From a virus (taxonomy: Duplodnaviria; Heunggongvirae; Uroviricota; Caudoviricetes), in the IMG/VR virus record IMGVR_UViG_3300016484_000447, positions 1 to 23,772 of that record: DNA of 23,772 nucleotides; one strand, given 5' to 3'. The translations under genes were made by a program, and so were the position numbers. This document shows, one piece after another, positions 10,316 to 15,545 of this stretch (its first letter is position 1; every line of letters starts with the position of its first letter). The notes beneath the pieces were generated by a model. That model had not been told where the DNA came from and ran no database searches. It saw only the letters and a list, made by a program, of their open reading frames with translations.

Positions 10316-10759
10316 TTAGTACGTGGCCTTCAGTTGCAGGGCCACGGCTCCAGTCGGAGTATCCGTCTTGCTGGGCGCGATGACAAGCAGATCAGCAGAT
10401 AGGGCCTTGCAGATGTCGTATTCGAGCAACAGGTTGTAGAACGGCCCGTACTTCCCGTCGTACATCGGGTATCCGCTCACCACCCCTGCGCGGAGTCCAG
10501 CACGCACAGGGCCAATCTCCCAGGGGAGGTAGCTGACGTACAGGATGTTCGAGGTCTTGTAGTACGAGTTGGCAAAGCTCCCAAGCCCAGCCCGGAACTC
10601 GCCTTCCCGGACTTCCAGGCCCAGGCCGAAGTTGTTCTCGTTGTAGTCTTTCGCCCTGTTTGCGTGATAGGAGCGTGTCATCACAGTCCCCCAGTACGTT
10701 TCTGCTGTCGCTGCGATGACTACCAGCACCAGCGCCAGGGCTATTACCAGCCTTTTCAT
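10316..10759 (-). CDS. Secreted outer-membrane beta-barrel protein, PagP-like (147 aa)
   Basis: Signal peptide MKRLVIALALVLVVIAATA; SYH....DYNENNFGLG; ANSY; alternating beta-strand pattern; C-terminal aromatic beta-signal LQLKATY. Confidence 0.7.
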   Translation of the reverse strand: MKRLVIALALVLVVIAATAETYWGTVMTRSYHANRAKDYNENNFGLGLEVREGEFRAGLGSFANSYYKTSNILYVSYLPWEIGPVRAGLRAGVVSGYPMYDGKYGPFYNLLLEYDICKALSADLLVIAPSKTDTPTGAVALQLKATY

Positions 10760-13721: not shown

Positions 13722-13810
13722 GGGTGTTTTCCTGCTGCCGGGCTGTAACCCCGGCGTCGTAAAACAGGTAGGCTGGTAGACGAGAGGTTCGAGTCCTTGA
13801 ACACCCACCA
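13722..13810 (+). ncRNA. Non-canonical tRNA(Tyr)-like RNA lacking a D-arm at the normal position (89 nt)
   Basis: Acceptor GGGTGTT/AACACCC + A-CCA; anticodon arm GCCGGG-CTGTAAC-CCCGGC; TTCGAGT T-loop; only 8-9 nt between acceptor and anticodon stems. Confidence 0.75.
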
Positions 13811-13828: not shown

Positions 13829-14017
13829 ATGTTCGGTCTTCTCGAAGACATCGCAAAGGCGGCTGTGGCAGTCGTGACCACGCCGGTTGCAGTGGTGGTC
13901 GATACCGCAGAACTGGTCGGCATCAAGCAAGACAGTGGTCGCTGCCACACAGCCGACACCCTCGGTGCGGTGGTCAAGAACCTCGAAAACGCTGCGAACC
14001 CCACGTCCAGGGGTTGA
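13829..14017 (+). CDS. Small Val/Ala-rich protein (62 aa)
   Basis: AAGGAG SD; stop overlaps next -35. Confidence 0.7.
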   Translation: MFGLLEDIAKAAVAVVTTPVAVVVDTAELVGIKQDSGRCHTADTLGAVVKNLENAANPTSRG

Positions 14018-14043
14018 CAGGACAAGGAAGTGTGTGATACACT
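14014..14043 (+). promoter_or_regulatory. Promoter of the tRNA/ncRNA operon
   Basis: TTGACA-N18-TACACT with TGTGA; first tRNA starts 11 nt downstream. Confidence 0.8.
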
Positions 14044-14133: not shown

Positions 14134-14325
14134 TCATTCGCGTGGGCTTGTAGGTGATAGTGACGAAAGGTGCTTGACTGGTACATCTTGCACTGAGCCA
14201 CCCGTTCGAGTCGGGGAAGAGGCCACTGGCAAGTAGTCACAACGTTCACCGTGACGCACTCAGACGTATTCTGAGCAACGGTAGGTCGTATGTAAGCGTA
14301 GCCTACTACGAGCCCACACGAATGA
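14134..14325 (+). ncRNA. Candidate structured RNA A (192 nt)
   Basis: ~20-bp closing stem 14134-14153/14306-14325; internal T-loop-like hairpin and three further hairpins. Confidence 0.7.
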
Positions 14326-14407: not shown

Positions 14408-14652
14408 TGTTCTTTGATAGTCGCTTCGGAATACCGAAAGAGAAACACCGCGAGAGGGGCAGGGGCTAGCACACCTCCCCGAAAGGTGAAAAGTCGGAAT
14501 TCAAAGCAACGGGGACGTTGCTGGCGAAACAGGATCGGAGTTGGCGGAAGGCACCGGGCTGAGTAACCCGGAGAAGCCACCCTTGAACTCTACGACTGAC
14601 GCATTCGCCCGAAGGCAAACGGTAATCCGACCGGAGCGACTTTCAAAGAGCA
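14408..14652 (+). ncRNA. Candidate structured RNA B (245 nt)
   Basis: ~21-bp closing stem 14408-14429/14631-14652; nested helices, GNRA-type loops. Confidence 0.7.
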
Positions 14653-14655
14653 TTT

Positions 14656-14727
14656 GCGGGTTGTCAATGGAGTACGTTTGGCCTTCCAAGCCGAAAGAGG
14701 CAGGTTCGACCCCTGTAGCCCGCTCCA
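14656..14727 (+). tRNA. tRNA-Gly(TCC) with degenerate D-arm
   Basis: GCGGGTT/AGCCCGC acceptor, U73-CCA, TCC anticodon; 72 nt, D-stem barely pairs. Confidence 0.8.
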
Positions 14728-14734
14728 AAGAATT

Positions 14735-15060
14735 TTCGATGTAGCACGGAAGACGCCTGCTAAGGTTGCGGGTAGTCACGGAAGATGCGAAGCACTGCTA
14801 CGGTGCTAGCCCGAAACTACTGAGGATTTGCGGCCCTACTGCACACAGGCCATAAGGTAGAAAAACGAAGTGCCCGCAACGTTATCGAAGGAATACGGAC
14901 GAAAGTGGCCTGAAAAGAACACTAGACGGACTAGCTTCGACATAAAGCGGTAGAGATGCCCGAGCGGTGACAGCGTAAGCTGATAGCGTCGGATCGACAG
15001 GGACAATAACCCGGCAAATCCTGTTCATCTCAGCCAATGACTGTAGGCTATAAAACAGTC
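14735..15060 (+). ncRNA. Candidate structured RNA C (~330 nt) with kissing loop, pseudoknot and repeated ANGGA motifs
   Basis: Helices 14735-40/14884-89, 14765-72/14873-80, 14953-58/15026-31; loop-loop CAGGCCA/TGGCCTG; 3' H-type pseudoknot. Confidence 0.6.
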
Positions 15061-15063
15061 GAT

Positions 15064-15140
15064 GGGTGCGGTAGCTCAACTGGCAGAGCAACGGATTCCA
15101 AATCCGTAGGTTGTAGGTTCGACTCCTACCCCATTCGCCA
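15064..15140 (+). tRNA. tRNA-Trp(CCA) with weak acceptor stem
   Basis: Canonical D, anticodon and T arms; acceptor has 2 G-U pairs, a C-C mismatch and one extra connector base. Confidence 0.8.
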
Positions 15141-15144
15141 GTTC

Positions 15145-15235
15145 TGTCCTGCACGCAGCGCATGTCTCCAAACTAGAGGTTGCCCCGCCTTGAGTGGCCG
15201 GGCAATAGTACAGGCAATGCACGCTGCGGCAGGCA
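15145..15235 (+). ncRNA. Candidate branched hairpin RNA D (~90 nt)
   Basis: CCTGC-ACGCAGCG-CAT pairs with ATG-CA-CGCTGCG-GCAGG; internal TTGCCC/GGGCAA hairpin. Confidence 0.45.
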
Positions 15236-15241
15236 TTTTTT

Positions 15242-15355
15242 AAGCGGTGGCGCAATCTCGTGCCGCTTGCAACTTGCGCCCTAACAGCGGTGCCGTGTAT
15301 CGCGGCCTTGCTAGCTGCGTTGCGGATCAAACGAGATGCGGGAGTGCGGTTGCAC
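15242..15355 (+). ncRNA. Candidate multiply pseudoknotted RNA E (~115 nt)
   Basis: Crossing helices GGCGCAA/TTGCGCC, TCTCGT/ACGAGA, AAGCGGT/GCCGCTT. Confidence 0.5.
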
Positions 15356-15361
15356 CAATGT

Positions 15362-15516: not shown

Positions 15517-15545
15517 TTGACAAGTAGCGCGTATTGTGCTACAAT
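15517..15545 (+). promoter_or_regulatory. Internal promoter of the tRNA operon
   Basis: TTGACA-N17-TACAAT with TGTGC. Confidence 0.85.

Follow-up and report, generated by a model that had tools for sequence, protein, structure and literature searches.

By comparison of homologous loci, the spacer between the tRNA-Gly and tRNA-Trp genes of an uncultured phage is a real, conserved, folded, and pseudoknotted phage-encoded noncoding RNA made up of three separable modules. A sequence-only reading of this DNA had proposed a knotted RNA of ∼330 nt here, and that much is borne out, since a conserved pseudoknotted noncoding region is present in full-length homologues. This element, RNA C, is conserved, structured, modular, and dispensable, and it is placed between tRNA-type processing sites. 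The family is new with respect to Rfam and INPHARED, although it may already be listed among the 10,006 candidate viral RNAs of a published catalogue (PMC10690425).

Genomic setting, conservation, and modules

The stretch analyzed (the window, 23,772 nt) makes up the opening 23.8 kb of a phage record 87,772 bp long. RNA C fills the tRNA-Gly/tRNA-Trp spacer of a tRNA array that precedes the terminase gene, with the following features:

14014 to 14043, plus strand: sigma-70-type promoter-like site ahead of tRNA-Thr (10 of 12 matches, by consensus match alone)
14656 to 14728, plus strand: tRNA-Gly with encoded CCA, the 5′ boundary (detected as 14656-14724, E 0.1)
14729 to 15063, plus strand: RNA C, the whole spacer, with three structured modules, variable hairpins between them, and known full-length homologues
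14730 to 14747, plus strand: AU-rich leader and 5′ strand (14741-14746) of pseudoknot a, 18 of 18 positions invariant in three lineages
14752 to 14777, plus strand: variable hairpin that folds in five C1 copies of differing sequence
14781 to 14873, plus strand: C1 core, 89% invariant over 14781-14865
14884 to 14940, plus strand: variable linker hairpin closed by 14884-90/14935-40, 28% invariant inside
14953 to 15031, plus strand: C2, a three-way junction whose long arm has a GNRA-type tip
15032 to 15061, plus strand: C3, a terminal H-type pseudoknot with an A-rich loop, ending 3 to 4 nt before tRNA-Trp
15064 to 15140, plus strand: tRNA-Trp, the 3′ boundary

The upstream tRNA-Gly was missed by ARAGORN, and its L002 homologue was called as tRNA-Gly. 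The promoter-like site at 14014 to 14043 is the nearest upstream candidate promoter of the transcript containing RNA C; the next lies at 15517, and a consensus scan found none inside RNA C. The phage terminase is ∼41% identical to Pakpunavirus terminases, and the capsid protein is 51 to 53% identical to those of Limnohabitans phage DC31, two Pseudomonas phages, and Curvibacter phage P26059A, from which we take the host to be probably a proteobacterium. Other genes of the phage code for RtcB, an RNA ligase, and a macro-domain protein, a set that fits RNA-damage conflict but does not by itself tie these proteins to RNA C.

We retrieved homologous loci via relatives of the terminase and found full-length copies of RNA C at L002:562-901, at L342:5369-5709, and in L343 and L344. 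The window, L002, and the L342 group constitute three independent full-length lineages, and five lineages are available per module. Identity of RNA C among the three full-length lineages is 81 to 83%, as against 50% (window versus L002) and a saturated 26 to 28% (window versus L342) at fourfold-degenerate terminase sites, which indicates that RNA C is under selection. Across these lineages the invariant positions fall in blocks, comprising 100% of the leader, 89% of the C1 core, 95% of the joint, 91% of C2, and 90% of C3, and the ∼90% in the cores compares with 36% and 28% in the two variable hairpins; this blockwise pattern fits selection better than it fits recent transfer. The flanking genes vary by lineage, with a tRNA for Gly, His, or Leu upstream and a tRNA for Trp or Ser or an HNH-like gene downstream, and RNA C is retained while the neighboring tRNAs change.

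Most relatives are without RNA C, and in L502, a member of the same terminase cluster as L002, it has been lost apart from ∼22 initial bases. Covariance models of C1 and C2 recovered no further copies from ∼1 Mb of related loci and 36 whole virus records, indicating that the family is rare and accessory, and neither model had a significant match anywhere in the complete genomes of the three cultured phages nearest to this one (top hit E 0.07, 16 bits, lying outside the array). Rfam searches at E up to 1 to 10, run on the window, on the RNA C region, and on five loci homologous to it, recovered nothing other than tRNA, tmRNA, and group I introns elsewhere. When the region and divergent copies of its modules were compared by blastn with INPHARED phages and plasmids, no real match emerged. 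The one metagenome scan returned a 168-kb phage (L176/L340) and nothing else. Matches to looser patterns were discarded as chance among the genome-contig matches listed, as a common prophage coding match, and as coding sequence in L480.

Module C1 is built around a stem at 14787-14810 whose loop (14796-14801) pairs with the leader strand 14741-14746 to form pseudoknot a, a feature absent from the sequence-only reading and carried by three different complementary sequence pairs over five lineages (one in the window, L002, and L342, one in L009, and one in L347). The module further contains a stem at 14817-21/14856-60 with a large conserved internal loop and an invariant 4-bp stem at 14832-35/14848-51 whose hairpin loop can pair with 14870-73. 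The C1 covariance model (R1) finds only the window, L002, L342, L009, and L347 lineages; C1 occurs without C2 in L009/L019, where it occupies a 124-nt Gly-to-Ser spacer, and in L347, where it accompanies C3. L009 also retains the leader, which survives in L502 as a stub. In L009 the 3′ half of C1 (L009:1454-1495) looks like a C3 whose loop has an inserted small hairpin, a likeness that suggests that the two are paralogous or recombining.

C2 has a conserved loop of 18 nt able to pair back with 14957-59, and in 5/5 copies the tip of its long arm is a GNRA or GNRA-like loop. Across five sequences, 96.7% of cells are paired and 6 pairs are compensatory, a level reached by 0/500 shuffles and by none of the slid controls, with the proviso that relatedness can inflate the compensatory count. 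C2 stands alone in L029 and in the 168-kb phage, which has no detectable homologue of the window terminase and in which a circularly permuted tmRNA gene (L340:845-1257) has exactly C2 as its intervening segment, again flanked by a CCA end on one side and a tRNA-like 5′ end on the other. L340 has more unannotated structured spacers at 138-266, 344-447, and 700-845. Separately, a hairpin with the base sequence of the C2 long arm follows a promoter-like site in L485:4050-4100 and L496, which are unrelated contigs (E 0.09); this resemblance may be chance.

C3 shows a compensatory change in L002 and has a new second stem in L347. C3-like knots within 12 nt of a tRNA start were found at 5/199 spacer ends versus 0.24 in shuffles, 2 of these 5 being independent of the descriptor's design, and similar terminal knots precede tRNA-Leu or tRNA-Ser in L012, L030, L040, and L345, as well as occurring in L014. 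More distant relatives carry a second family of terminal H-type pseudoknots, located immediately ahead of tRNA-Leu (L014:532-684, L012:308-454, L030:1040-1102, and L040:820-864), and three of its members have in common a purine-rich stretch before the knot; the L014 region has no INPHARED match.

Listed motifs and the CsrA question

All of the strings that the sequence-only reading listed are where it placed them, including two copies of CANGGANG at 14745 and 14777, the closing hexamers at 14735/14884, the octamers at 14765/14873, the heptamers at 14846/14906, the GNRA hairpin at 14971, the 3′ pseudoknot strands at 15032, 15039, 15046, and 15055, and six ANGGA motifs. We assessed the helices drawn from them by pairing in four full-length copies from three independent lineages, over which that structure model is 76% paired. 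Two of its elements held up: the GNRA hairpin stem is 100% paired with one compensatory change, and both stems of the 3′ H-type pseudoknot are 100% paired, with one compensatory change in the second. The hexamer closing helix is likewise 100% paired, and its strands hold, but it shows no variation at all and 14935-14940 offers an alternative partner that is just as good; for strand 14884-89, pairing with the 5′ leader and pairing with 14935-40 are both possible. The string of the proposed ACGGA pentaloop is present, but the CTAG/CTAG stem meant to display it is only 62% paired.

Two long-range pairings did not survive the comparison. The kissing helix drawn between 14846-52 and 14906-12 is 43% paired and absent from homologues, its first strand being the 3′ side of the C1 stem 14832-35/14848-51, and the 8-bp octamer closing helix (14765/14873) is 50 to 62% paired, its 5′ strand pairing locally within the 14752-14777 hairpin in the comparative model. 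A perfect 7-bp complement occurs somewhere in 96% of shuffles of the region and an 8-bp one in 58%, placing both matches within chance. Single-sequence nested folding does not distinguish the region from shuffles (z −1.19, not significant) and gives pairing probabilities of 0.56 for the octamers and 0.36 for the heptamers, and these pairings could form in the window copy alone; it is the homologue comparison, not folding energy, that leads us to reject them as family features. The comparative model is 97% paired, a figure to be read in light of its having been built from the same sequences with mostly invariant pairs, and since most pairs of RNA C never vary, those pairs are uninformative on structure.

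The same reading had cast RNA C as a sponge for CsrA/RsmA, and had named loss of the ANGGA motifs in homologues as grounds for giving that up. The window copy contains 6 ANGGA versus 2.1 in dinucleotide shuffles (p ∼0.01 to 0.015, uncorrected, for a motif chosen post hoc), and its ANGGA density is in the top 0.4% of genome windows. GGA itself is not enriched (8 versus 6.9 to 7.0 in shuffles, p 0.36 to 0.38). Among the homologues, L002 has 2 ANGGA and L342/L343 have 1, where ∼2 are expected by chance, and single-module copies have 0 to 2. Of the six window sites, five are within variable segments or border on them, and each of these five is lost in at least one other lineage; three of the six fall in the linker hairpin 14884-14940, which folds in all three lineages with differing inner sequence and also holds the second kissing strand. 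The sole ANGGA kept in all full-length copies (14999) is part of a helix, and L340 carries a changed version of it. The sites are therefore not kept, and the sponge reading fails at the family level: as far as the homologous sequences indicate, the partner of the RNA C family is not CsrA. The phage encodes no CsrA gene, and RNA C has no Csr/Rsm match in Rfam.

RNA C is near CsrB in size and resembles CsrB, CsrC, RsmX, RsmY, and RsmZ in its six ANGGA, the latter in the window copy only. It differs from them in having GGA at chance level, unconserved and mostly outside hairpin loops, and in having a compact pseudoknotted fold with no promoter or terminator of its own, whereas CsrB carries 22 GGA and high-affinity CsrA sites display GGA in hairpin loops (PMC7652899). 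A sponge function gained perhaps in the window lineage alone would draw on the six motifs, one of them in a pentaloop, and on the fact that Pseudomonas is the host of some of the nearest cultured relatives; others infect Limnohabitans and Curvibacter, and with 8 GGA, motifs lost across lineages, and the one conserved site paired, we regard even this restricted version as highly improbable.

Proposed role and alternatives

Phage tRNA arrays have held non-tRNA RNAs with unexplained roles since species 1 and 2 (rnaC and rnaD) of phage T4, structured stable RNAs of the tRNA cluster transcript that are freed by host processing and whose function is unknown. RNA C resembles them as a structured non-tRNA RNA in a phage tRNA array, its existence as a discrete molecule being predicted from sequence, and it has a conserved structure between same-strand tRNA genes, the property by which we recognize stable non-tRNA array RNAs. 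It differs in its ∼330 nt, its three modules, its lack of a T-loop string, and its lack of a blastn match to any INPHARED phage. By analogy, RNA C probably acts like these RNAs, as a new family within a known class.

Our preferred reading, held tentatively and with slightly less than even confidence, is that RNA C is an accessory stable RNA, freed from the tRNA transcript by host enzymes, capped by a pseudoknot, and binding a partner through its modules. It would be transcribed as part of the array and, under standard bacterial tRNA processing, released by the host's trimming of the upstream tRNA back to its CCA and by RNase P cleavage at the tRNA that follows, with C3 at the new 3′ end presumably shielding it against exonucleases in place of a terminator; we consider this route of release and protection likely by analogy with known tRNA maturation. 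C1 and C2 would be two independently folding domains followed by the 3′ pseudoknot C3, and the three might also be set free, or function, as separate RNAs. The least certain step is that the purine-rich strands of C1 and C2 that are unpaired and invariant may serve as binding surfaces for a host factor, candidates being an RNA-binding or tRNA-attacking defense protein or a nucleotide ligand, with RNA C acting in trans as a decoy or aptamer. There is usually no gene directly downstream of RNA C, which argues against cis regulation.

We weighed this reading against several others. C1 and/or C2 could belong to a new class of ribozymes, self-cleaving or processing, that assist in cutting up the tRNA array, as do theta ribozymes, minimal HDV-like pseudoknotted RNAs found directly 3′ of phage tRNAs (PMC10879173). 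Compact pseudoknotted cores with many invariant unpaired bases, and the start of C1 1 to 10 nt past a tRNA CCA in 4/5 lineages, suit this idea, but C1 in L347 does not adjoin a tRNA, no Rfam ribozyme matches, and the hammerhead-like heptamer is broken in L347 and has no conserved partner strand, so that we find it unlikely. Taking theta/HDV-like RNAs as those with a nested double pseudoknot, a G1 within 5 nt of the tRNA end, and a J4/2 cytosine, RNA C shares with them small pseudoknotted modules near phage tRNAs but has a different topology in the comparative model (the C1 5′ strand pairs with a hairpin loop) and no G1 site at the CCA end; our own HDV descriptor, which lacks a validated positive control, gave no match. 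The hammerhead combination of core heptamer, GAAA strand, and three stems is not present in RNA C either. Resemblances seen by eye to hammerhead, HDV, glmS, twister, glycine, and ykkC RNAs all failed to pass a test. For ykkC, two short C2 strings resemble what we take to be the 3′ region of that motif (guanidine-I, ppGpp, and PRPP aptamers), but they pair differently, a tRNA and not a regulated gene lies downstream, and RF00442 (ykkC/guanidine-I) has no match in the phage genome at E up to 10; we treat the resemblance as a lead and not as an identification.

The modules might instead merely organize or stabilize the precursor as folding spacers or processing signals and bind no outside partner. 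Their constant location within tRNA or tmRNA precursors, the survival of the leader where the rest is lost (L502), and the suitability of C3 for end protection agree with this, but ∼90% loop and junction invariance across saturated divergence exceeds what a spacer needs and the arrays of most relatives are processed without RNA C, making it rather unlikely. GOLLD and ROOL RNAs, pseudoknotted phage or prophage RNAs of unknown function near tRNA islands (PMC12286853), many GOLLD members exceeding 800 nt, share the genomic niche and pseudoknotted nature of RNA C. That RNA C is a small relative self-assembling into oligomers would accord with its conserved GNRA-type tip and with repeated short palindromic strands that have alternative partners; its size is less than half that of GOLLD, no GOLLD or ROOL covariance model matches (Rfam, E up to 10), the proposed kissing loop is unconserved, and modules occur singly, and we judge this quite improbable. 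A nonfunctional spacer whose similarity stems from recent DNA exchange would explain the patchy distribution and few homologues, but it is very hard to credit given variation limited to hairpins that still fold, compensatory changes in the cores, and modules recurring in new contexts.

The natural variants of RNA C delimit minimal domains of ∼95 to 125 nt, with C1 alone in L009 and C2 alone in L340. The occurrence of C2 in unrelated phages and the recurring pre-tRNA 3′ pseudoknot suggest a general promoter- and terminator-free route to stable RNAs. A broader version, which we offer as speculation and think improbable as a whole, is that C1 and C2 are two new functional RNA domain classes (ligand- or protein-binding aptamers or ribozymes) swapped as cassettes among phage families into tRNA and tmRNA precursors and released by host tRNA processing as pseudoknot-capped counter-defense RNAs.

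Other elements of the tRNA arrays

Further RNAs of the array are conserved around RNA C: RNA A (window 14134-14325) in the relatives L029 and L502; RNA B (14408-14652) in L002, L029, L342, L352, and L003; and RNAs D and E, in the spacer after tRNA-Trp (15141-15360), with homologues at L347:6613-6740, L502:1920-2135, and L507:9580-9725. An E-like element is fused immediately upstream of C1 in L347, indicating that the tRNA array shuffles several RNA modules. An unusual tRNA-Tyr-like element with its own promoter (window 13722-13810) recurs in L342 and L502. Open reading frames resembling HNH or PD-(D/E)XK nucleases are repeatedly inserted within the arrays (L342:5710-6083, L009, L007, L341, and L502), one in L342 beginning directly after C3, and a DUF2828/DUF7788 protein gene lies within the array of another relative (L341:3029-4444). 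Elsewhere in the window, positions 10316 to 10759 encode a predicted beta-barrel protein that has no Pfam match and whose nearest named structural neighbors are PagP-like (TM ∼0.8).
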